A DNA stretch of 14,469 nt, taken from the UHGV virus genome UHGV-0142781; one strand, 5' to 3'. The position numbers and the translations under genes are program-made. The notes below the pieces were generated by a model that saw only the letters and a program-made list of their open reading frames with translations, had not been told where the DNA came from and did no database searches. Each line of letters starts with the position of its first letter. Within the stretch, counting starts at the first letter, position 1. This document shows, in pieces, positions 1,546 through 13,645 of the stretch. The stretch is from a virus.

Positions 1546-2607
1546 ATGACAAAGAAACAGCGTAAAAATAAAAAATTCGGGTCCATGACCGGCAACAAGG
1601 TTGAAACCTTCACGCCAGGGCGCGGAAGCGTGATCACCTTTGGCGAACCAGAACCCATCCTGACGACCGGCACTGATTATCACAATATCTGGTATGACAA
1701 TGAGTATGACCACTGGCGACTCCCGATTGATCGCCTGGCGCTGGCCCAGTTGCCGAACCTTAACGGCCAGCACGGCGGGGTACTGTATGCGCGGCGCAAT
1801 ATGGTGGCCGGTGGCTATATCGGCGGCGGCCTGACGCCTGACCAGGTCGAACAGGCTGTCTTTGATTACCTGCTGTTTGGTGACGTCGCTATCCTGAAAA
1901 TTCGTAACGTATTCGGGGAAGTGATCGACCTGCTGCCGCTGCCGTCGCTGTATCTGCGCTGCCGGAAAGACGGGTCGTTTGCCGTTCTGCAGGAAGGGCC
2001 AGCGCTTATCTATGACCCGGAAGACATCGTTTTCTTTAAAATGTACGACCCTCGCCAGCAGGTGTATGGCCTGCCTGACTATATCGGCGGCATCCATTCG
2101 GTGTTACTCAACAGTGAGGCAACCATCTTCAGGCGCCGTTACTACAATAACGGGGCGCACATGGGCTTTATTCTCTATACCAGCGATCCGAATCTGACGC
2201 TGGAAATGGAAAACGAAATCAAAGAGAAGATCGCCCAGTCCAAAGGGCTGGGTAACTTCCGCAATATGTTTATCAACATCCCGAAGGGCGACCCGGAAGG
2301 GGTTAAAATCCTGCCGGTGGGCGAAGTCAGCGCAAAGGACGAATTTGCCAACATCAAAGGGATCACCGCACAGGATATCTTTACCGCTCACCGTTTCCCC
2401 GCTGGCCTGGCGGGTATCATCCCGACCAATGGCGCGGTAATGGGCAACCCTGAAACCGCCCGCACAACCTATCGCAAGGATGAAGTTATCCCCTTGCAGC
2501 GCAAGCTAATGAACGGCGTCAACAATGACCCGGAGATCCCCGCACACTTGCACCTGGTTTTTGACGTGGATATCCCAGCAATTACCACCGAAAAGGGCGA
2601 AAAATGA
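1546..2607 (+). CDS. Q: Capsid portal protein (P2 gpQ family)
   Basis: 353 aa; motifs FGEPEP, IFRRRYYNNGAHMGFILY, SKGLGNFRNMF and EVSAKDEFANIKGITAQDIFTAHR match my recollection of P2 gpQ. GGGAAAG RBS at 1533-1539. Confidence 0.85.
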   Translation: MTKKQRKNKKFGSMTGNKVETFTPGRGSVITFGEPEPILTTGTDYHNIWYDNEYDHWRLPIDRLALAQLPNLNGQHGGVLYARRNMVAGGYIGGGLTPDQVEQAVFDYLLFGDVAILKIRNVFGEVIDLLPLPSLYLRCRKDGSFAVLQEGPALIYDPEDIVFFKMYDPRQQVYGLPDYIGGIHSVLLNSEATIFRRRYYNNGAHMGFILYTSDPNLTLEMENEIKEKIAQSKGLGNFRNMFINIPKGDPEGVKILPVGEVSAKDEFANIKGITAQDIFTAHRFPAGLAGIIPTNGAVMGNPETARTTYRKDEVIPLQRKLMNGVNNDPEIPAHLHLVFDVDIPAITTEKGEK

Positions 2608-2930
2608 GCGCAGTTAAGTTAAAATCATCCCCATTGTTAGCAATGGTGTGCGGGATGGTGAACATGCGAGTTTTTAAAATTAAATGTCCTGAATGCGGCT
2701 CACCGGCCATCATTCGCAAATCAGACTGGAAAGATAAAAAACTGGCCGATTTATACTGCGCCTGCACGGAAGTTGAATGCGGCCACACCTTTGTTTTTAA
2801 CGCCCAGTTTTCACATACTCTCAGCCCCAGCGGACTGACCGGCAACAAGCTGGTTAAATTTCTGATTGATCGGCTCAAACCAGACGAAAGACAATTCGCT
2901 TTAGATTTGCTAAACAACCATATTAATTAA
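2604..2930 (+). CDS. Ogr/Delta-family zinc-finger transcriptional activator (late-gene activator type)
   Basis: CPEC-x22-C-TEVE-C-GHTF matches the Ogr pattern C-x2-C-x22-C-x4-C-x2-TF (P2 Ogr: CPLC...CQNVNCSATF). ATG at 2604 overlaps the Q stop TGA at 2605-2607 (ATGA). An alternative start at 2664 (MRVFKIKCPEC) gives an Ogr-sized protein. Confidence 0.7.
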   Translation: MSAVKLKSSPLLAMVCGMVNMRVFKIKCPECGSPAIIRKSDWKDKKLADLYCACTEVECGHTFVFNAQFSHTLSPSGLTGNKLVKFLIDRLKPDERQFALDLLNNHIN

Positions 2931-2982
2931 CCTATAAGCACCGAGTATCTTTATTTAAATGTGATATTTATAAGGAAATATA
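2931..2982 (+). promoter_or_regulatory. AT-rich leader of the cargo cassette (possible promoter plus RBS)
   Basis: Very AT-rich stretch (TTTATTTAAATGTGATATTTATAAGGAAATATA) ending in an AAGGA RBS before the ATG at 2983. No specific -35/-10 assigned. Confidence 0.3.
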
Positions 2983-4818
2983 ATGAGCAATTCAAAATAC
3001 ATTAATTTAGATGCGAGAATAAAAAAACTAAAAGAAGTTGTTAAAGATTTAGACACAAACACTTTAGCAACCTACTCTTTTTGGGAAATGTACAAATTTG
3101 GTACATTAGGTCAAAAAATTGAACTACAATCACCAGCACGACAAATCTTATATCTTTTTGGGATTGCATGTTCATCTGCTGAACCAACCGAACCAACTGA
3201 TAATGTTGAGGGTAAGATAAAACAAACAGTAGAGATCCTAAATGATATTTTTACAAAATATATGTTGGCGTACTTTCCAACCAAAGATGATTTAAAATCT
3301 GGATTAGAAGATGAATGGCATAAAGTTAGAGAAGTTGCTATGCCAATGTTTTCAAACTACTTTTTTGAAGGGTTAAAAGTTTCCACTGAAAACTTCAAAG
3401 GGATCATAAAAAATTATTTCAATGGTTTTGAAAATGAAATAAAAACACATTTTGGCTTAGATCACCATGAAATGGTAGAAATTTTAAATCTCATTGGTGA
3501 GCTTATACAGAGCAAATATGACAGATTCCGTGAAATAATGGATACATTAAAAGACGAACATGAGAAATTTAAAGAGAATAATTTTGAAAAACATGAAGAT
3601 TTTATAACATATATGGATGACATGAGGGAGCGTACAAAACATTTAGCACAAGAATTTCATGACTTCCTCAATGGGAGTGTATCATTCAAGTTTGATTCAA
3701 TAAGATGTAAACTTGGTGACGATGTCGTTGATAGTTTTATAAAAGCTTTCGTTACAGAGCGTGGAAACTCATCCGAAATCAAATACATTACTGATGAGAA
3801 TCCATTTTCATATAAACCGATAGTAACTGTAAATAATCTGGATTATATGCTCCCTTCTGCTAACGCAGCTTATGAAGCTATCATTCTTAATCTTGAAAAG
3901 TTTTTTAAAGAGTCAAAACACAATGATAAATTTAGAAAAGCCCGAGACAACAGGCTGGAACATGAGACTTTTTGCACCTTTAGAAATTTCTTCCCTGAAT
4001 CAACTACAATACTTGAAAGTGTATTTGAAACAAACAAATCCCATAATGAACATGATCTGATTATTTTCCATGATAAAACGATTCTTATTGTAGAGGCTAA
4101 AGCATCACCACGCCGCGCTCCATTGAGAGAACCAGCCAGAGCATACATTAGAATTAGAGATGATTTCAAACGTAAATCAGGAATACAAAGCGCATCTGAA
4201 CAAGCAAATAACTTAAGAAATTTAATCATTAATAATGAAAAAACATCATTATATGATAAAAAAGGTAATTTACTATATACCATAAATCGTTGTGACTACG
4301 ACAATATATATTGTATATGTGTCACTAAAGATGATTTCGGAATGCTTGCTACAAATTTAACTTTAATGTTAGAAAAAAAAGAAGATGAACCCTACCCTTG
4401 GGTTATTTGTATTCAAGACTTGAAGTTTTATTTTGATTGCCTTAAGGAAATAGATTTGGATCATGACTATTTCTTAAATTATATTCGTGAAAGAATAAAA
4501 ATACACGGCAAAGCAACGGCATGTGATGAGCTTGAATATGCAGGTGCATACTTGAATTATGGTGGTTTCGATTTCATTAATAAAGAAGTAAACTCTAACG
4601 TTTGTCTTGATATCTCTGAATCACGAGTATTCGATGAAATCCATATCGAAAAAGTTAATGGCAGGAAATATGTTCACCAGATTAAAAAACCTACTTACAG
4701 CATTTTAAATAGAGATAAATTAATTTCTTCTTTAAATTTCAATCACTCAAACAAAGATGCAAAAAAAGCAAAATCAAAAAGAAAGGAACAGAAAAAATCC
4801 AGAAAAAGAAACCGTTAA
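2983..4818 (+). CDS. Cargo protein with central PD-(D/E)xK-like nuclease motif and poly-basic C-terminal tail; candidate defence effector
   Basis: 611 aa, strongly AT-rich. Residues 356-373 read EHDLIIFHDKTILIVEAK (D-x12-ExK, nt ~4048-4101). C-terminal 23 residues are almost all K/R/S. No Walker A motif. Confidence 0.85.
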   Translation: MSNSKYINLDARIKKLKEVVKDLDTNTLATYSFWEMYKFGTLGQKIELQSPARQILYLFGIACSSAEPTEPTDNVEGKIKQTVEILNDIFTKYMLAYFPTKDDLKSGLEDEWHKVREVAMPMFSNYFFEGLKVSTENFKGIIKNYFNGFENEIKTHFGLDHHEMVEILNLIGELIQSKYDRFREIMDTLKDEHEKFKENNFEKHEDFITYMDDMRERTKHLAQEFHDFLNGSVSFKFDSIRCKLGDDVVDSFIKAFVTERGNSSEIKYITDENPFSYKPIVTVNNLDYMLPSANAAYEAIILNLEKFFKESKHNDKFRKARDNRLEHETFCTFRNFFPESTTILESVFETNKSHNEHDLIIFHDKTILIVEAKASPRRAPLREPARAYIRIRDDFKRKSGIQSASEQANNLRNLIINNEKTSLYDKKGNLLYTINRCDYDNIYCICVTKDDFGMLATNLTLMLEKKEDEPYPWVICIQDLKFYFDCLKEIDLDHDYFLNYIRERIKIHGKATACDELEYAGAYLNYGGFDFINKEVNSNVCLDISESRVFDEIHIEKVNGRKYVHQIKKPTYSILNRDKLISSLNFNHSNKDAKKAKSKRKEQKKSRKRNR

Positions 4819-4872
4819 CAAAATATCCTTTTGACGAATTCAAACCAACTGAACATATGGAGAAAATAAAAC

Positions 4873-6228
4873 ATGAGAATGACCGCCCCATTAAAATCAT
4901 TTTCTGATGGATTTTGTGAGAATGACGACATTTTTGAAAGAAAAAAACTTCACGACATTATTATGCGAGTTGCTACTAACGCGCCTGATAAAAGTTTAGT
5001 TTTAGCATTAGATGATAAATGGGGTAATGGGAAAACTTCATTTGTAAAAATGATGGAATCAGAAATAAGCAAAAAACATTCCGATGATTTCGAAGTCATC
5101 TATTTTGATGCATTTAAAAGTGATTATCAGTCGGATCCATTTGTAGCGTTAACTTCCAATATTTATTCGTTGGTTAGTAATGAAGAAGGCAAGCTAAAAA
5201 CATTAGGTGAAAAATTATTAAGTGCTGGTAAAAAACTAGGAGCTTCATTCCTTTTAAATGGTGCGAAGTTTGCAATCAGTACTATTTCAGGTGGGATGGT
5301 TTCTGGTACTGTAGTCGAAAAGGCAAGTGATACAATATCAGAATCCATATCATCACCTGTAGAAAAATACATAGAAGAAAAGATAAAAGCAAGTGAGAGT
5401 GAGTTTGCTACTATTGAGCAATTTGGAAATTTGTTAACTGAGATATACAAAGAAAGTGGAAAGAAAATATTTTTTATAATTGATGAATTAGACCGTGCAC
5501 GACCTGATTTTTCATTGGATTTATTAGAAAAGATAAAACATATATTCTCAGTAGAGGGTATTATTTTTCTATTGGTCGTCAATCGCGAACAATTTGAAAA
5601 AAGCATTGAGTCTCGATATGGCAATATAAACTCAAGATTGTATCTCAATAAATTTGTTCATTACTGGTTTTCGCTTCCCAAAACAAGCTGTTTATCTGAT
5701 GGTTGCTTAAATGGATATACTTATTCAACTATAAAACGATATTTACTTTCCATTGATAATGGAAACGACTTATTAAGTAGAAATGGTCCGCTTCTTAATA
5801 CACTATCATTGCTTTTGGAAATAAATGGAGCTTCTTTGAGAGAGGCGGAACGCTGTTACTCGGTATTTTCGGTTATCGAAGATGTCAATAAAGTAAACTA
5901 CTATACAAGTGATGCATATAAAGTAGCTTTGGGACTTGTTGTTTTCCTGAAAGTACATAACTCACAGTTGTTAACTGAAATTGTCTTAAAAAAAATCGTG
6001 TTAAAAGAAGCGATAGCCAAGCTTTTAATATACACAGTTCATCACCACAATATAATCGAAGCTCAATTCATTGAATATATCTTAAAGTACCATTACGCAA
6101 CAAATGAAGAATTAATAGAAGAAAGGAAGCAAAGAACATACTCTGATATAGAAGGTGGATATGGTCGAAGAACTCCCCTATTAGAAGGCATGTTTAAAAC
6201 AGTTGAGGGGTTTGATATTAGTTCTTAA
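4873..6228 (+). CDS. KAP-like P-loop NTPase; candidate defence partner
   Basis: 451 aa, AT-rich. Walker A-like DDKWGNGKTSF (res 47-57, nt 5011-5043) and Walker B FFIIDELDR (res 200-208), about 150 residues apart with a hydrophobic stretch between, as in KAP NTPases. 54-bp gap after the upstream gene, same strand. Confidence 0.85.
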   Translation: MRMTAPLKSFSDGFCENDDIFERKKLHDIIMRVATNAPDKSLVLALDDKWGNGKTSFVKMMESEISKKHSDDFEVIYFDAFKSDYQSDPFVALTSNIYSLVSNEEGKLKTLGEKLLSAGKKLGASFLLNGAKFAISTISGGMVSGTVVEKASDTISESISSPVEKYIEEKIKASESEFATIEQFGNLLTEIYKESGKKIFFIIDELDRARPDFSLDLLEKIKHIFSVEGIIFLLVVNREQFEKSIESRYGNINSRLYLNKFVHYWFSLPKTSCLSDGCLNGYTYSTIKRYLLSIDNGNDLLSRNGPLLNTLSLLLEINGASLREAERCYSVFSVIEDVNKVNYYTSDAYKVALGLVVFLKVHNSQLLTEIVLKKIVLKEAIAKLLIYTVHHHNIIEAQFIEYILKYHYATNEELIEERKQRTYSDIEGGYGRRTPLLEGMFKTVEGFDISS

Positions 6229-6319
6229 ACTCTATTTTTTCGCGGACTCTTTGCCGCCCGCCCCGCATCATCGCGCAGATCGACGCAACAAGTTGCGACG
6301 GTCAGCGCGATTGCATTCA

Positions 6320-8932
6320 TTATTTTGGGTGACTACCATCCACACCCGCCAGCATTTTTTGATACTCCCCGACCGGATCAAACCGCAGGCGCGTGGCATC
6401 AATACCGTGGTTATCACGCAGACGGTCCCATAATTTATTCACCGTCCGTGACTCATCGAGTAATTGACGCGTTATCAACTCGCCGCCAGCACTGCCCCGA
6501 TAAACTTTGCCGCCAATCTCCAGACGGCTCCCCATTAACAGCGAAACAGCCTGAATCTCTGAAATCTCAACCGAACACAACGCCGCATCAGCCAGCAGAC
6601 TGGCAACCTCAGGGGCAAGCGCTGCCCGCCTGGCTTTTTCAGCCGCCGATCTGGCCTCGGTTTTTTTAACGGCAGAACGCCAGGCAACATCTAATTCGCT
6701 CCCTGGCTCATAAGGTGATCCGCTTTGCCGCCTTTTGAATGGTGCTTCACGTAGTCGCCGCATCAATTTTCGCCGCGTTGGCTGGTCCATATTTTCAAAA
6801 TCGACGATTTCCTCTTCTGATTCTTCTGTCATACCCTCCACATCACGCGAAAAATCGGTGATTTTTTCGTCTTCCGTAGAGTTATTGACAGAACTCCAAG
6901 CGTCGCCGGTTGGCGACGGCAAAAGGTCAACCCCCAAACCGGGGCCGTTTTTGGCCTCGGTGGTAGCTTTAGATTTGGCGCAGATTTTCCACTTAACCAG
7001 ACGGGTACAAATACGGGAGGCATCACCCAGACGCGGCGACCAGACCCCGAAAACCTTTTCGGGGATCTCACAATAAGCATTCATTTCATCAGCTGGCTGA
7101 TAGGCCAGACGGACGACATAGTTTTCTCGCGGGATCAAAACCCCACCCTGGCGGATGATGTAGGTAGCAAAGCACCCGACATCGGCAGCGGCGCAAACCG
7201 CATCCATTGCAGGATCCACAAGCAACGGCGCACCGCGTTTGAAGGTATTGTCAATTTTCTGGCGGGTCGTGATTTGATTGCTCAGTTTGCGCAGCTCGCG
7301 GTAAACCGATATGGGCGGCTGTCCGATAGGCTGAAACTGGCGGATACGGTGAAGCGATGCCCAGGCCATTGCATATTTGGCGGTTTCATTCAGCGGCTTG
7401 CCGCTTTCGTCGTCCAGTTCACCGGCCAGCGCGTGGCCGTCGATATTCTTCGAAATGTATTTAGCGATATATGCCGTTGCCGACCCTTTCCGTGGGTCCA
7501 TTTTTTTTGACTTGAAACGAGCACCGGTATTGCGGCCCAGCTCATCGCGGTCTTCCGCAATGAAGTAGGCGCGAAGGATCGCAACCGTGGCTTTGACTTG
7601 CTCTTGTGGCATAAACAGCAACGCGTGCCAGTGTGGTGTCCCATCGTGATGCGGCTCGGCGACACGGAAGCCATAAGGGCGCAAATCTTCGCGTTTCAGT
7701 TTGGCGGTTGCACGGTTCCATACACGGCATAAATAGCGCTGCGCCTGGGCGACGGTGGAATGATTCCATTTGGCATTATGGTGGCCGGACGCAATATTAC
7801 TGTGATATTTCGACGGGCAAGTGATGGTCAGGAAAATACCAACATCGCCGCGACTTTGGGCGACAAGTTCAACGCCAGCCATTCTGGTCATAAGCTCATG
7901 GCGACGAATAGCCGGGTTAGACGTGGATTTATTAATCATTTCCTCAAGCGACGAAACGTTGCCGTCTTCGTCTACCAGTTCATGACTTTTGAAAAAATCC
8001 CGGTTTTTACGGCGCTGTTCCTGCCACTCGATCAGGCTGGAAGCGCTAACGTAGGCGTGCGCTTTTTTATTTACCGCGCCAACAGCACGCAGCTGGTTCT
8101 CGCGCCAGTCACAACGCAAGCGCCAGATTTTTCGCCCCCACCAGTCAGGCGAAGCCATACGCAAAATGGCCGTGCATATGCGCTCGCGTTCCCACGGCGC
8201 ATACCATGCAGGCGGCACAATACGAAGCGCCAGCATTTCTCGGCCCAGGTGGCAATAAAGCCAGTCCAGTTCTTCGACGTTCATGTCGGAAACATTCCGC
8301 CCTAGGGCTTCGCATTCCGTCCCCAGCATTTCAGCCATGCGGCTGGCGATCTCATTAGCGGCGCTTAGTGCATCCCGCTTTGTGAAATCAGCCAGACGTT
8401 GCCAGCGCCCGAACCAGTACGCGGCCAGTTCGCCGGTGATATCAGGCGAAACACCTTGCCTTGTGCGTACAACATCAAGACGCAGCAATGATTTTTTCAC
8501 GGTTCCCATAAGAAAATCATTGGTGTGTCTGGTTTCACGGTTGACCCGTAACCACTCAATTTTTTTTCGCCAGACTTCACGAATGAAGAACGGCTCTGCT
8601 AATAAACGCGCTTCGACACCTTCCGGCGTATTGGTCCAGGCTGCCGTCGTAGATTTGGCGGCTTCCATTTCCTGCCGGATTAAATTTTGATGGGCGGCCA
8701 GTGGCAGGCCGCACGGTTCGTACCTGTCCAGCGCCTGGATAAGCGCGTTACGGTCCCGCACCTCGTCGGGGTTGTAACCGGCGTGTCTGAAGATGTGATC
8801 GATGTGTTTTTTTACGGCAGGATGATGCGCCACCGCCCCGGCAAGCGGGGCGATTTTTTTCGGTTCGTAGGTGTACAGGCCAACAGCTGGGCGCGGCGCG
8901 TTCCAGGGCCATGCAAAAGCTGTGTCAGACAT
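6320..8932 (-). CDS. A: Replication initiation protein (P2 gpA family rolling-circle endonuclease)
   Basis: About 870 aa at the expected position upstream of the cargo slot; identified by size, synteny and general resemblance to gpA. ORF track starts at a GTG at 8950; the ATG at 8930-8932 (MSDTAF...) is the more likely start. Confidence 0.85.
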   Translation of the reverse strand: MSDTAFAWPWNAPRPAVGLYTYEPKKIAPLAGAVAHHPAVKKHIDHIFRHAGYNPDEVRDRNALIQALDRYEPCGLPLAAHQNLIRQEMEAAKSTTAAWTNTPEGVEARLLAEPFFIREVWRKKIEWLRVNRETRHTNDFLMGTVKKSLLRLDVVRTRQGVSPDITGELAAYWFGRWQRLADFTKRDALSAANEIASRMAEMLGTECEALGRNVSDMNVEELDWLYCHLGREMLALRIVPPAWYAPWERERICTAILRMASPDWWGRKIWRLRCDWRENQLRAVGAVNKKAHAYVSASSLIEWQEQRRKNRDFFKSHELVDEDGNVSSLEEMINKSTSNPAIRRHELMTRMAGVELVAQSRGDVGIFLTITCPSKYHSNIASGHHNAKWNHSTVAQAQRYLCRVWNRATAKLKREDLRPYGFRVAEPHHDGTPHWHALLFMPQEQVKATVAILRAYFIAEDRDELGRNTGARFKSKKMDPRKGSATAYIAKYISKNIDGHALAGELDDESGKPLNETAKYAMAWASLHRIRQFQPIGQPPISVYRELRKLSNQITTRQKIDNTFKRGAPLLVDPAMDAVCAAADVGCFATYIIRQGGVLIPRENYVVRLAYQPADEMNAYCEIPEKVFGVWSPRLGDASRICTRLVKWKICAKSKATTEAKNGPGLGVDLLPSPTGDAWSSVNNSTEDEKITDFSRDVEGMTEESEEEIVDFENMDQPTRRKLMRRLREAPFKRRQSGSPYEPGSELDVAWRSAVKKTEARSAAEKARRAALAPEVASLLADAALCSVEISEIQAVSLLMGSRLEIGGKVYRGSAGGELITRQLLDESRTVNKLWDRLRDNHGIDATRLRFDPVGEYQKMLAGVDGSHPK

Positions 8933-9146
8933 TGGATGCCCCGCTATCACCCTCCCGCTGGGAATGTTTTTCGATTAGCGGGTCGAGTAACACATTGAAA
9001 GAAATCAACAGCGTATTTGCGGCTTCACTTCCGGCGAGAACACCCGCGAACGTTGCGTGTGCAAGGGCCAGTGTTTTGGCTTCGTTAAGCGCAGCCAGTG
9101 CGCCGCGCTGGTATTCCGAAAGACCGTTATTAATTTTGTTAGCCAT
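8925..9146 (-). CDS. Small hypothetical phage early protein
   Basis: 73 aa; its ATG overlaps the dam stop (TGATG at ~9144-9148), suggesting translational coupling; position matches the small ORFs before A in P2. Confidence 0.6.
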   Translation of the reverse strand: MANKINNGLSEYQRGALAALNEAKTLALAHATFAGVLAGSEAANTLLISFNVLLDPLIEKHSQREGDSGASNV

Positions 9147-10111
9147 CAGAAGACCACCTCGTCAGCCGTCCCACCCCACACGGAATAACCAGCACAAGGG
9201 CCACAGTCAGGACAGCACCCACCACCTGCACGACGACAAGTTGCACAGACTTTGAGGACGCCGATCACTTCACTGGCGGCCCCTCTGGTAATGGCGTTCG
9301 CGCTGACAGAACGGTTAACGCTGATTTCCTGGAAGTTGAAAGCGCGATAAATCTCGCGGGTAGATGGGGTGTCGCTATTGGACAGGATCACCGGCGAACC
9401 AGTAAGGCGGTTAATATCCAGCAGGGCGGCAGCTAACTGGCGATGCTCTTTAATCCCAAACGGGGCGGTGTGGTATTGGGTGAAATTAGCGGTTTCGCTT
9501 GTTGGCAGGTATGGCGGATCGCAGTAGATAACCGCGTCACTACCAATCATAATTTTTAACGTGCTCTGGAAATCGCAGCACACGAAAATGGCTTTCGTGT
9601 CGTTAGCTTTTTCAGTGAATAAACGGATCTGTTCTTCCGGGAAGTAAGGCGGGGTTTTGTGTCGCCCAAAGGGAACGTTATATCCACCCTGTTGGTTGTA
9701 GCGTACTACGCCGTTATATCCGTGACGGTTCAGGTAAAGAAATTGTGCTGCACGAAGAATCTTGCCCGTGTCCGGTCCGTCCTCAAACACATTGCGCGAT
9801 GACAGAAGGTCATAGGCGCGGGCGTTGAAATCATCGCGGATCCACTTATAGCCGTCTTTATCGCCGTACACTTTAAACAGCGGGCGAGCAGCGTCGATCA
9901 CCGCATCAGGCCAGCGGGTTATCTGGCGATACAGGTTAATTAAATCTGGGTTGATATCACCCAGGATATAACGGCGATATTCAGTATTGAGGAAAACAGA
10001 AGCACCGCCGACAAACGGTTCCACCAGGCAATCGGCTTTCGGCAGAATCGTTAGCAAATCAGGCATAACCCGGCCTTTGCCACCGGGCCATTTAACGAGA
10101 GATCGAATCAT
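9146..10111 (-). CDS. dam: DNA adenine methyltransferase (Dam family) with Cys-rich C-terminal extension
   Basis: N-terminal KWPGGK, EPFVGG and catalytic DPPY (res 198-201) motifs; GGAGAAAG RBS. C-terminal about 35 residues carry six Cys (CATC...CC..C..C). Confidence 0.9.
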   Translation of the reverse strand: MIRSLVKWPGGKGRVMPDLLTILPKADCLVEPFVGGASVFLNTEYRRYILGDINPDLINLYRQITRWPDAVIDAARPLFKVYGDKDGYKWIRDDFNARAYDLLSSRNVFEDGPDTGKILRAAQFLYLNRHGYNGVVRYNQQGGYNVPFGRHKTPPYFPEEQIRLFTEKANDTKAIFVCCDFQSTLKIMIGSDAVIYCDPPYLPTSETANFTQYHTAPFGIKEHRQLAAALLDINRLTGSPVILSNSDTPSTREIYRAFNFQEISVNRSVSANAITRGAASEVIGVLKVCATCRRAGGGCCPDCGPCAGYSVWGGTADEVVF

Positions 10112-10586: not shown

Positions 10587-10808
10587 CTACGCAAAGATGC
10601 CCATTAAGCGGGAAAACCAGCGGCGCTTATTACGCGGGCGCGACATGAACGGTACACGGCAGTTTTTAACAAATTGAACATCTGCCGCTTTCGGCTGGAA
10701 GAACCGCCCGTCCGGGGTTTCAATCCAGCCGCGTTGATGCTGACGGTGGGTGATCTGCTGGCCGTGCGTGAGCAGACTAGCGAGTGAAGGGCATTGTGTT
10801 AATTCCAT
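10587..10808 (-). CDS. Small hypothetical phage early protein
   Basis: ORF track gives 10587..10880; the internal ATG at 10806-10808 (MELTQCP...) is preceded by GGAG. GC-rich, same strand as neighbours. Start uncertain. Confidence 0.45.
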   Translation of the reverse strand: MELTQCPSLASLLTHGQQITHRQHQRGWIETPDGRFFQPKAADVQFVKNCRVPFMSRPRNKRRWFSRLMGIFA

Positions 10809-10946
10809 GTTGATCTCCGTCATATTGAAAAGATGCCGGGATACGACCCCACGCCCGGCGCGTGTTTCCTGTGATAACATCGCTATGCCTGTGTAACTTT
10901 GAGCAGTGAATCAGGCATAACAATCACCAACACAGAAGGAGTTGTA

Positions 10947-11426
10947 ATGAAATTCAATGTGTTTTTTAAAAAAGACCACGGATCACACTGGGTGCTTTCC
11001 GATGATTCCCCCCTCTTTGAAAGTCCACTATTTGAAACAAGACCTAAAGCCATTGATGACCTTGAGAACTTTGTAGGCCTTATGGAATCGCCAATCTTTA
11101 TTAAGGCTGGTGACGATATTAATTCTGGCGATACAGAAAACTGTCCATCTGTAGTAATTTCTTTAAAACAGCATGAATCGCTATGGGGCTGGGAATTATT
11201 TATCTCAAAAAATGGACAACTTTCTAAAGTTACCGAAAGTTCAGGTAATGGCTTTGACTCATTAGAATTAGCAAAGCAAAGTGCCCAGTTTTTCCTTAAT
11301 GCCATTATCGACGCTCCTATTCTGGATCAAGCCGATGTCGCTATCCCCGGCATGCACTTCTCAAAATCTTTCGAGGAAACGCACCACATTGGTGACACTC
11401 ACCCATCTAGTAAATGGTTCAAATAA
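10947..11426 (+). CDS. AT-rich hypothetical protein (moron), antisense to the early operon
   Basis: ATG at 10947 with AGGAG RBS at 10936-10940 (ORF track extends to 10899). 159 aa, visibly AT-richer than neighbours; no recognisable motifs. Confidence 0.7.
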   Translation: MKFNVFFKKDHGSHWVLSDDSPLFESPLFETRPKAIDDLENFVGLMESPIFIKAGDDINSGDTENCPSVVISLKQHESLWGWELFISKNGQLSKVTESSGNGFDSLELAKQSAQFFLNAIIDAPILDQADVAIPGMHFSKSFEETHHIGDTHPSSKWFK

Positions 11427-11430
11427 TCCA

Positions 11431-11778
11431 TCACTGTGGTGTTATCGTTTTTCTTGTGCGAGGTGGTACATCTCGCACGGTTTCTTCATCAACAATTAAC
11501 TCATAAACTCTGATGCTGCTATCACCTTTTGATACGTCATCAAATACCTGAAAAAGAAAACTCATGAATTGCTCATAAGTGACGCTGGGTTCAACATACC
11601 CACCAGTAACCTCAATTAATGGTGTTAGTCCTGAATTATCTGCTAACGAAACGCAGTCCAACTTATCCAAACGGAAAAAGTAATTACCGCAAGGTGTTCT
11701 TTTATCCTTAATCCGTATAAATACATTTGATAACGCTGTATGACTATCTGAGAGTTTAAAGATTTTTGCCGTGTCCAT
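11431..11778 (-). CDS. AT-rich hypothetical protein (moron) immediately downstream of cox
   Basis: 115 aa starting 22 nt after the cox stop on the same strand; its stop lies 4 bp from the stop of the convergent 10947-11426 gene. AT-rich relative to cox. Confidence 0.6.
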   Translation of the reverse strand: MDTAKIFKLSDSHTALSNVFIRIKDKRTPCGNYFFRLDKLDCVSLADNSGLTPLIEVTGGYVEPSVTYEQFMSFLFQVFDDVSKGDSSIRVYELIVDEETVRDVPPRTRKTITPQ

Positions 11779-11800
11779 TTTATTCAGCCCTGTAAGTTGC

Positions 11801-12076
11801 TTATGATGGATTGCCCAGACCCAACCACATTAACCACCCTTCCCTAATTTCCTTCGGGCGGCTCTCATACGCCATTTTCATTCCGTTGTTCCATGCTGGG
11901 AGGTAGACCCAGTACTCACCTGCCCGCCCGGAAGTTGATTGCGGATCGGTCATCTCAACTACGGGTAGCTTTCCTTTTTCAATCATCCCCTTCACCGCTG
12001 CCGGTGTTTTACCAATGAGTTTTGCGAACTCCTGATATGGGACGGCATCTGTGCTTAACGCGATCTGTTTAACCAT
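11801..12076 (-). CDS. cox: Cox (excisionase / lytic-switch regulator)
   Basis: 91 aa; translation tracks my recollection of P2 Cox over most of its length (AIPYQEFAKLIGK, DPQSTSGRAGEYWVYLPAWNNG, ESRPKEIREGWLMWLGLG). GAGGG RBS. Confidence 0.9.
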   Translation of the reverse strand: MVKQIALSTDAVPYQEFAKLIGKTPAAVKGMIEKGKLPVVEMTDPQSTSGRAGEYWVYLPAWNNGMKMAYESRPKEIREGWLMWLGLGNPS

Positions 12077-12192
12077 TTAAGGCCCTCACAAGTTTAAGAA
12101 TCGTCACCAATGGCTTATAGTTGCCTTTGATGTTCATTTCTAAACATCAAACAGTCTACATCTAAATCAAATGGTATTGAGATCTAAACACT
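12077..12192. promoter_or_regulatory. Immunity switch region between cox and C (early and repressor promoters with operator repeats)
   Basis: Three direct repeats TCTAAACA (12139-12146), TCTAAATC (12161-12168), TCTAAACA (12183-12190), exactly 22 bp apart. A TATAAG -10-like element on the minus strand (~12113-12118) faces cox. Confidence 0.6.
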
Positions 12193-12492
12193 ATGTCAAA
12201 CGCCTTAAACGAGAAAATTGTACTCATCAGAAAGTCTGAGTATCTCAGCAGACAGCAACTAGCTGATTTAACAGGCATTCCCTATGGCACTTTAAGTTAT
12301 TACGAAAGTGGTCGTTCTACACCGCCCACGGACGTAATGATGAGGATTTTGCAAATGCCCCAATTCAGCAAATACACGTTGTGGTTTATGACCGATCAGG
12401 TTGCTCCCGAAGCCGGTCAGATAGCACCGGCCCTCGCACACTTTGGGCAAGATGTAACAACATCGCAGCACTCAGACCAAAAGATTGGTTAA
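12193..12492 (+). CDS. C: Immunity repressor C
   Basis: 99 aa; near-collinear with my recollection of P2 C (EKIVLIRKSEYLSRQQLADLTGIPYGTLSYYESGRSTPPTDVMM...), same length. Confidence 0.9.
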   Translation: MSNALNEKIVLIRKSEYLSRQQLADLTGIPYGTLSYYESGRSTPPTDVMMRILQMPQFSKYTLWFMTDQVAPEAGQIAPALAHFGQDVTTSQHSDQKIG

Positions 12493-12637
12493 CCATTCAC
12501 CAGGCGCATCTTTATTACAAAATTTGTTTACTTGTTGCCAAATACAACAAACACAACAAGTTTGTGAAATCTAAGCGCAAGGGAAAATTAACAGCAGCAA
12601 AGAAAACTCAACCTAGCACCATTCATTTGGGGGTCTT

Positions 12638-13645
12638 ATGACAATTAAGAAACTCGATGATGGTCGTTATGAAGTGGATATCAGACCTGCAGGGCGCAAC
12701 GGAAAGCGCATCCGCAGGAAATTTGACAAGAAAAGTGAGGCTGTAGCTTTTGAGAAACACACTCAATACAACCATCACGATAAAGAATGGCTGGCTAAAC
12801 CGACAGATAAGCGGCATCTGTCTGAATTAACAAAAGTCTGGTGGGATCTGAAAGGCAAGCATGAAGAACACGGAAAATCCAATTTGGGTAAGATTGAAAT
12901 CTTTACCCGGATCACTGATGACCCTTGCGCGTTCCAGATAACCAAAGCGCTTATTAGCCAGTACAGCATGACTCGCAGAGGGCAAGGCATAAAACCGGCC
13001 AGTATTAACCGCGACCTTACCTGCTTGAGTGGTATGTTTACTGCGCTAATTGATGCGGAGTTGTTTTTTGGCGAACACCCTTTCAGAGGGATGAAAAAGC
13101 TCAAGGAGCAGAAACCAGAAACAGGCTATCTGACGCAGGAAGAAATAACATTGTTGCTTGCCAATCTTGACGGGGACAACAAGAAAATCGCGATTCTCTG
13201 TTTAAGTACCGGCGCTCGATGGGGTGAGGCCGCGAAACTGAAAGCTGAGAACGTAATACAGAATCGGGTGACGTTCGTTAAAACAAAGACGAACAAACCA
13301 CGTACTGTCCCTATCTCTGAGGAAGTAGCTGTAATGATTGCGGGTAAAGGGTATCTGTTCCCAGATGCCTCATACCCGAAGTTCAGGCGAACAATGAAAG
13401 ATGTAAAACCAGATCTACCGGACGGGCAAGCAACTCACGCATTGCGTCACAGTTTTGCTACCCACTTTATGATTAACGGCGGGAGTATCATCACCTTGCA
13501 GAGAATACTGGGACATTCACGGATAGAGCAGACAATGGTCTATGCGCACTTTGCCCCGGAGTATCTTCAGGATGCTGTTTCACTCAATCCGCTACGTGGT
13601 GGTGTTGACTCCCAGAGTGTCCACACTGTGTCCACAGTAGGGTAG
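12638..13645 (+). CDS. int: Tyrosine integrase (P2 Int family)
   Basis: 335 aa; N-terminus MTIKKLDDGRYEVDIRPAGRNGKRIRRKFDKKSEAVAFEK and C-terminal HALRHSFATHFM...LGHSRIEQTMVYAHFAPEY match P2 Int as I recall it. GGGGG RBS. Confidence 0.95.
   Translation: MTIKKLDDGRYEVDIRPAGRNGKRIRRKFDKKSEAVAFEKHTQYNHHDKEWLAKPTDKRHLSELTKVWWDLKGKHEEHGKSNLGKIEIFTRITDDPCAFQITKALISQYSMTRRGQGIKPASINRDLTCLSGMFTALIDAELFFGEHPFRGMKKLKEQKPETGYLTQEEITLLLANLDGDNKKIAILCLSTGARWGEAAKLKAENVIQNRVTFVKTKTNKPRTVPISEEVAVMIAGKGYLFPDASYPKFRRTMKDVKPDLPDGQATHALRHSFATHFMINGGSIITLQRILGHSRIEQTMVYAHFAPEYLQDAVSLNPLRGGVDSQSVHTVSTVG

Follow-up and report, generated by a model that had tools for sequence, protein, structure and literature searches.

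Single-protein nucleases with a PD-(D/E)xK active site are already known in phage defence. Upx consists of one protein, which senses the terminase ATPase via a large non-catalytic part and needs its ExK motif (PMC13601566; PMC13099982); its architecture consists of N-terminal, middle and C-terminal domains (NTD, MD and CTD; PMC13099982), and in some genomes it has been reported alongside Avs1. ZwsA (Zowangsin) from Pseudomonas aeruginosa is a stand-alone NERD RNA endonuclease that cleaves the genomes of single-stranded RNA (ssRNA) phages (bioRxiv 10.64898/2026.04.06.716636), and HEC-02 shows NERD proteins acting in defence (bioRxiv 10.1101/2024.01.29.577857). In P2-like phages, the interval from gpA to gpQ (portal) is a documented defence hotspot, which in P2 itself contains old and tin (PMC9122126; PMC13586616). 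Here we describe open reading frame (ORF) 611, at positions 2983..4818 on the + strand of a 14,469-nucleotide DNA, UHGV virus genome UHGV-0142781 (the whole analysed stretch, hereafter the window), as a candidate stand-alone NERD-type PD-(D/E)xK nuclease. We estimate a probability of about 0.6 that ORF611 is a self-sufficient, prophage-borne defence nuclease, probably excluding superinfecting phages. Nothing fundamentally new is implied: the protein is most likely a previously undescribed phage-defence nuclease encoded by one gene, and its novelty lies in its architecture.

ORF611 encodes 611 residues (about 71 kDa) from an ATG start codon, with an AAGGAA ribosome-binding site 6 nucleotides (nt) upstream, and its homologs begin at the same methionine. 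The original prediction had claimed a PD-(D/E)xK motif at residues 356–373 of a large helical protein with no Walker motif. Residues 356–373 (4048..4101, + strand) do read EHDLIIFHDKTILIVEAK, giving E356-H357-D358 ... E371-A-K373, the NERD pattern ExD ... ExK on consecutive strands, and no Walker A motif is present anywhere in ORF611. A fourth catalytic-type residue, E326, had been missed and lies on the helix before the sheet; the catalytic set predicted from the sequence is hence E326, D358, E371 and K373. The motif alone is weak evidence, since the loose pattern D-hydrophobic...hydrophobic-[EDQ]xK arises in about 7% of ORF611 shuffles. The PD-(D/E)xK call, D358 and E371-A-K373 together with E326 on the first helix, rests instead on conservation, family assignment and fold, each of which backs it. 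In an alignment of 62 family members sharing 25–74% identity, R321, E356, H357, E371 and K373 are invariant, and D322, E326 and D358 are each at least 90% conserved.

The Pfam NERD model (PF08378) aligned with residues 338–417 of ORF611 at 16.7 bits (E 0.011), below the gathering threshold of 22.1 bits, and ORF611 gave nothing above threshold in Pfam, PADLOC, NCBIfam or PHROGs. The family consensus scored 25.0 bits against PF08378 over model positions 4–97 of 111; matches at E<=0.1 were obtained for 45 of the 62 members (best 9e-6), and several homologs carry the NCBI label ‘NERD domain-containing protein’. An exact-sequence look-up found ORF611 to be identical to MDQ2229214.1 of Citrobacter portucalensis, a ‘hypothetical protein’. 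At family level, ORF611 is a divergent NERD-domain protein, and alignment and model together identify it as a conserved, uncharacterised protein of predicted NERD / restriction-endonuclease-like nuclease type.

The fold of ORF611 was modelled confidently with AlphaFold2 (AF2) from the family alignment (mean predicted local distance difference test score, pLDDT, 91.1; predicted template modelling score, pTM, 0.87). With almost entirely helical structure, as the original prediction had anticipated for the stretch before the motif, the N-terminal region (residues 1–336; 2983..3990, + strand) gave no Pfam or PDB sequence match, and L48, S50-P51, Q54, Y93, P99, M120, F123, Y126-F127, Y268 and T270 are conserved within it. 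The NERD / PD-(D/E)xK catalytic core (residues 313–476; 3919..4410, + strand) comprises helix 314–336, carrying R321, D322 and E326, strands 342–348, 356–363 and 366–373, helices 384–417 and strands 420–448, its α/β part spanning residues 342–476. This is the α-β-β-β-α-β core of restriction-endonuclease-like proteins. E326 sits on helix 314–336, D358 begins strand 356–363 and E371 and K373 end strand 366–373, so that the model puts the motif residues in the canonical PD-(D/E)xK arrangement, in support of the original prediction. The site thus modelled, to which the first helix contributes E326, strand 2 D358 and strand 3 E371-x-K373, is predicted to be a NERD-class active site of metal-dependent type. 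A conserved C-terminal helical subdomain follows (residues 477–560; 4411..4662, + strand), with invariant R504, G509, D515, E516 and G521, and the protein ends in a polybasic helix (residues 576–611; 4708..4815, + strand), in which the last 36 residues hold 15 K/R against 3 D/E and terminate in KKSRKRNR. The model itself places a long hairpin at residues 161–231 of the N-terminal region, the C-terminal subdomain at 477–558 and the terminal helix at 577–610.

The nearest folds to the ORF611 model are DNA nucleases, namely Upx (Gao_Upx, PDB 9wuf), FokI/BspD6I-type cleavage domains and HindIII. A Foldseek search of the viral BFVD gave no significant match for the model, and a sequence search of PDB chains with the nuclease-domain profile returned nothing at E<=10; the full-length profile matched only apolipoprotein A-I, a spurious hit to coiled coil that was discarded. 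The NERD (PF08378)/PD-(D/E)xK superfamily and the FokI/BspD6I-type domains share with ORF611 the ExD...ExK motif, the core topology and the fold. In contrast to type IIS enzymes, the ORF611 core is embedded in a conserved 600-residue architecture with neither a DNA-recognition domain nor a cognate methyltransferase: no recognition-domain match was obtained for ORF611, and the low-GC island in which it lies (see below) encodes no methyltransferase, as a type II/IIS restriction–modification system would. Upx, a 3'-5' single-stranded DNA exonuclease, has 1272 residues in three domains with a second, atypical nuclease in the NTD, whereas ORF611 has 611 residues and one core; a second, Upx-like nuclease domain was considered and ruled out, the model containing a single α/β core. 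Nor is ORF611 a member of Upx by sequence, as none of the 62 members matched the PADLOC Upx model and the family profiles missed the 9wuf sequence at E<=10. We know of no SEC-C or polybasic tail on Upx. By analogy, ORF611 is predicted to work like the single-protein PD-(D/E)xK defence nucleases.

Because the closest folds (Upx, FokI/BspD6I-type domains and HindIII) are DNA nucleases, DNA would be the favoured substrate, at slightly better than even odds, with RNA a serious alternative owing to ZwsA and to the SEC-C tail found in part of the family. In its polybasic form the family tail terminates in [SA]-[RK]-[RK]-x-N-R. The same position is occupied in 22 of the 62 members by the SEC-C zinc motif GRNEPCxCGSGKKYKxC[CH]G, and the two tails are mutually exclusive. 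Other, unrelated defence proteins likewise end in SEC-C-like tails, namely PADLOC PDC-S12, the E2/E1-E2 models of the cyclic oligonucleotide-based antiphage signalling system (CBASS) and lactococcal Rugutis, and this recurrence suggests a shared, unexplained role in immunity. Matches of family members to PDC-S12 and CBASS E2/E1-E2 were not taken as assigning the family to a defence system: confined to the SEC-C motif in the last 25–40 residues, they are uninformative on the protein body.

These tails bear on the possibility that ORF611, like ZwsA, is a nuclease that targets RNA, perhaps in association with ribosomes, recruited to ribosomes or RNA by its tail and still acting in defence. Both are stand-alone NERD proteins in genomic islands with a C-terminal nucleic-acid-binding appendage (predicted in ORF611), and their catalytic spacing, E-31-D-12-E-x-K, is identical, E535/D567/E580/K582 of ZwsA being placed exactly as E326/D358/E371/K373. 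ZwsA has an RNA-binding S4 domain at the C-terminus, where the ORF611 family has its mutually exclusive basic or SEC-C tails, and the metal-binding SEC-C domain of SecA binds ribosomes and SecB (PMC6620043; bioRxiv 10.1101/613315). However, the nearest folds are DNA nucleases, a polybasic tail can bind any polyanion, and PDC-S12, CBASS E2 and Rugutis carry SEC-C with no assigned role. Moreover, ZwsA, compared here by description and not by sequence, differs in size and domain make-up: it is a protein of about 82 kDa with VHS, DUF647, NERD and S4 domains, its catalytic residues lie about 209 positions farther into the sequence and only about 140 residues follow its ExK, while ORF611 (about 71 kDa) has no VHS, DUF647 or S4 match in Pfam. 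We regard an RNA-directed ORF611 as unlikely, if worth serious attention. A bolder form, in which ORF611 would be the founding member of an unnamed, widespread single-gene immune family, built of a helical domain, NERD and a SEC-C or polybasic tail, and the tail would tether the nuclease to ribosomes or RNA for a translation-coupled, RNA-cleaving defence, appears to us quite improbable. If true, it would constitute a mode undescribed for PD-(D/E)xK immune nucleases, and ribosome tethering would explain the recurring SEC-C on unrelated defence proteins.

Returning to ORF611 as a self-sufficient defence nuclease, its genomic position was analysed in detail. The window is a P2-like prophage that encodes a portal (1546-2607), an Ogr/Delta-like late activator (2604..2930, + strand), a gpA replication initiator (6320..8950, − strand) and a Dam-type methyltransferase (9146-10111), the last three belonging to the P2 backbone, as well as an integrase (12638-13645). 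Between Ogr/Delta, the left border of the hotspot, and gpA, its right border, lies a sharp-edged cargo island (2931..6228) consisting of ORF611 and a second gene, ORF451, with a guanine–cytosine (GC) content of 31–33% compared with 54% in the flanking portal and gpA. The genes are thus compositionally foreign and the cargo varies between related prophages, as is typical of the P2 gpA-gpQ hotspot. Complete E. coli genomes match only the Ogr/portal flank, and most P2-like phages have no ORF611 gene. The Dam-type methyltransferase is found also in prophages without the NERD gene.

ORF451 (4873..6228, + strand) encodes a KAP-family P-loop nucleoside triphosphatase (NTPase; PF07693, 3e-39; PADLOC PDC-S20, 9e-72; phrog_8614) with intact Walker A (WGNGKTS) and Walker B (FFIIDE) motifs, and exact-sequence look-up identified it as the Citrobacter portucalensis ‘P-loop NTPase fold protein’ MDQ2229213.1. 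It lies 54 nt downstream of ORF611 on the same strand, with similarly low GC and no terminator-like site between the two, an arrangement that could reflect one two-gene system in which the NTPase senses infection and licenses the NERD nuclease. Such a reading draws on the validated two-gene HEC-02 system of an ATPase and a NERD protein (bioRxiv 10.1101/2024.01.29.577857), on the general tendency of nuclease–NTPase pairs to form complexes (bioRxiv 10.1101/2025.07.10.664194), on the presence of the NERD and KAP pair in the 98%-identical prophage of Citrobacter sp. TSA-1 and on Klebsiella P2-like prophages, in which a KAP remnant adjoins the NERD homolog.

The distribution of the two genes makes this pairing highly improbable, however. 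NERD is the sole Ogr-gpA cargo in Hafnia (74% identity), Enterobacter bugandensis (69%), a JGI contig (62%) and an IMG/VR contig (69%), whereas KAP homologs are the sole cargo of the hotspot in Salmonella (75%) and Klebsiella (66%), and another Hafnia hotspot holds KAP with a Fic-domain gene. Besides four Klebsiella remnants, a KAP relative was found near the NERD gene in none of the other 35 loci (the Citrobacter pair L040/L041 lying outside this set). In Klebsiella, with a 44%-identical NERD protein, the gene order is reversed and only a 110-residue N-terminal KAP fragment remains, upstream. All-versus-all clustering of flanking ORFs from 38 loci gave only P2 backbone genes and integrases as recurrent neighbours. 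Furthermore, PADLOC lists the KAP type of ORF451 as a single-gene candidate (PDC-S20), and Reve, a single-gene KAP system, has been validated in P4 hotspots (PMC13586616). HEC-02 resembles ORF611 in that its NERD-class PD-(D/E)xK protein is the presumed effector and an NTPase gene adjoins it, but HEC-02 requires an ABC ATPase partner, while the neighbour of ORF611 is a KAP NTPase that is dispensable by its distribution; the consistent nuclease–NTPase co-occurrence of such systems is lacking in the hotspot, where NERD alone and KAP alone both occur, and no family member matched the HEC-02 model of PADLOC. KAP was hence rejected as an obligate partner. Since each occurs alone at the same site, NERD and KAP are independent, interchangeable cargoes that are stacked here, and ORF451 is probably a separate single-gene defence system, given that KAP homologs fill the hotspot alone in Salmonella and Klebsiella.

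Two variants of this hotspot were recorded alongside. Directly 5' of the NERD homolog in the four Klebsiella loci (L001–L004), positions 5561-5917 contain the 110-residue ORF (120 residues in the tblastn match), 62–64% identical to the ORF451 N-terminus, which looks like a scar left when recombination within the hotspot exchanged one cargo for another. In a Hafnia P2-like prophage (L053/L054), a stacked cargo at 5047-7365 consists of a 162-residue ORF and a 138-residue Fic-domain protein, followed by the KAP NTPase.

The ORF611 family is large and widespread. A word-indexed search yielded 134 homologs, and a profile search run exhaustively against 1.84 billion cluster representatives yielded 2,986 clusters at E<=1e-3, of which 1,785 reached E<=1e-10 and 494 E<=1e-30. 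Nearly all of the best 150 profile matches are 560–640 residues long and aligned end to end, which indicates a uniform architecture of about 600 residues. An 814-residue relative (P0235), with an N-terminal extension of about 200 residues and a SEC-C tail, was considered as a ZwsA-like architecture and proved to be an ordinary family member. Members occur in Gammaproteobacteria, Bacteroidota, Acidobacteriota, Gemmatimonadota, Spirochaetia, Planctomycetota, Desulfobacterota, Chloroflexota and Firmicutes, and on the archaeal side in a Micrarchaeota metagenome-assembled genome (MAG) and on a Halobaculum plasmid; plasmids gave only distant matches, in Exiguobacterium and Halobaculum.

The genomic company of the family was assessed from 112 immediate neighbours at about 28 non-P2 loci. 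These include type I, IIG, ISP and IV restriction enzymes, GmrSD/HEC-06, Avs2, Dsr2, Pbe and MADS components, as well as four integrases and an IS66 transposase. In a Desulfarculaceae MAG (L030, 56-9698) the member stands directly 3' of Avs2 and Dsr2, in the order Avs2-Dsr2-NERD, and the locus is a clear defence island. Members adjoin HsdR in Hymenobacter mellowenesis, a type IIG enzyme in a Caldilineaceae MAG and a mad8/SspH-like protein in H. guriensis, and one is carried by a CTnDOT-like conjugative element. The family is always carried as a single gene, and its context, from this descriptive listing of neighbours, is that of a defence gene which is mobile and stands alone.

Two loci stood out for other reasons. 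In Pseudomonas viridiflava (7890-9677), a 595-residue ORF with no Pfam hit starts 38 nt after the NERD homolog, beside the VgrG/PAAR genes of a type VI secretion system; it was not seen in the other loci and could be either a partner peculiar to this lineage or a further cargo. A Salmonella enterica cluster (P0009), 93% identical to ORF611, has 461 member sequences, and all 15 members listed are ‘partial’, located at contig ends and 68–433 residues long. The gene is AT-rich and draft assemblies seem to be interrupted within it, which would make it common in Salmonella yet systematically under-annotated.

Sequence divergence was unevenly distributed along the protein. The frequency of the top residue peaks in the nuclease core and the segment that follows it (0.57–0.73), is moderate in the N-terminal helices (0.5–0.6) and is lowest in the tail and in a long antiparallel helical hairpin (residues 161–235; 3463..3687, + strand; 0.27–0.39), the most variable segment of the family. 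Between close alleles, likewise, the hairpin is the most divergent part (46–58% identity compared with 62–83% in other regions), and in the 93%-identical Salmonella allele the substitutions are concentrated in residues 161–247 (Fisher p = 0.001). The hairpin is hence a candidate specificity, sensor or oligomerisation arm.

We propose the following course of events. In the lysogen, the large helical N-terminal region would keep the nuclease inactive. Infection by another phage would provide the trigger, which might be one of its proteins or nucleic acid of abnormal structure; the fast-evolving hairpin perhaps recognises it. The nuclease might then cut nucleic acid gripped by the polybasic tail, or in other members by the SEC-C zinc knuckle, and cleavage would halt phage replication either directly or through abortive infection.

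Several points weigh against a defence nuclease of this kind. A tblastn search of 50,697 deposited phage genomes gave no ORF611 match; the 62 members matched no defence model of PADLOC v2 besides those hitting SEC-C tails; and a literature search found no paper testing the architecture of ORF611. The Actinobacillus member is solitary amid housekeeping genes. Divergence of the hairpin could equally reflect weak structural constraint, and the N-terminal conservation of 0.5–0.6 differs from that of hypervariable sensors. ZwsA, the sole biochemically studied stand-alone NERD defence protein, cuts RNA and not DNA (bioRxiv 10.64898/2026.04.06.716636), and we infer substrate, trigger, oligomeric state and autoinhibition alike.

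Some of these points would also suit a role outside defence, with ORF611 as a nuclease of repair, recombination or replication, a host-takeover nuclease or a selfish homing-type endonuclease of variable regions: PD-(D/E)xK/NERD domains also work in repair and recombination, housekeeping genes flank the Actinobacillus copy and curated defence models are not matched. We consider this very improbable. The gene is absent from most P2-like phages and from all deposited phage genomes searched, and so has no core phage function; the family is patchy over many phyla, low in GC and linked to integrases and conjugative elements, it often adjoins restriction–modification, Avs2, Dsr2 and GmrSD genes, and, unlike homing endonucleases, it shows no insertion into conserved genes. 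Moreover, ORF611 sits in a hotspot in which the majority of cargoes tested so far are defensive (PMC9122126, PMC13586616).

If validated as a defence nuclease, ORF611 would add a compact single-gene nuclease system, with about 500 clusters of clear homologs, to prophage-borne immunity. At present PADLOC does not recognise the family, and most of its members are annotated as ‘hypothetical’. A hotspot that holds NERD alone, KAP alone or both is a natural experiment on the additivity or synergy of stacked systems, and the tails, SEC-C or polybasic and interchangeable, give a practical means of probing the role of SEC-C in defence proteins.

Further features of the window were noted. A promoter scan found 12 sigma-70-like sites compared with 15.4 expected, none of them convincing 5' of ORF611, and terminator-like sites were uninformative. 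The start of Ogr/Delta overlaps the portal stop (2604-2607), and in related loci the gene is called as either 108 residues (overlapping start) or 91 residues (internal start), so that its start is ambiguous. Between the KAP stop and the gpA stop, the intergenic segment 6229-6319 has 57% GC and contains TTTGCCGCCCGCCCCGC; the idea that it is the P2 cos site at the island edge was dropped, since among the P2-like loci just the near-identical Citrobacter prophage retains the segment. A second stretch of moderately reduced GC (40–43%), with several small ORFs on both strands, lies at 10800-12600 between the Dam gene and the integrase, and presumably serves the prophage as its immunity/early control region.

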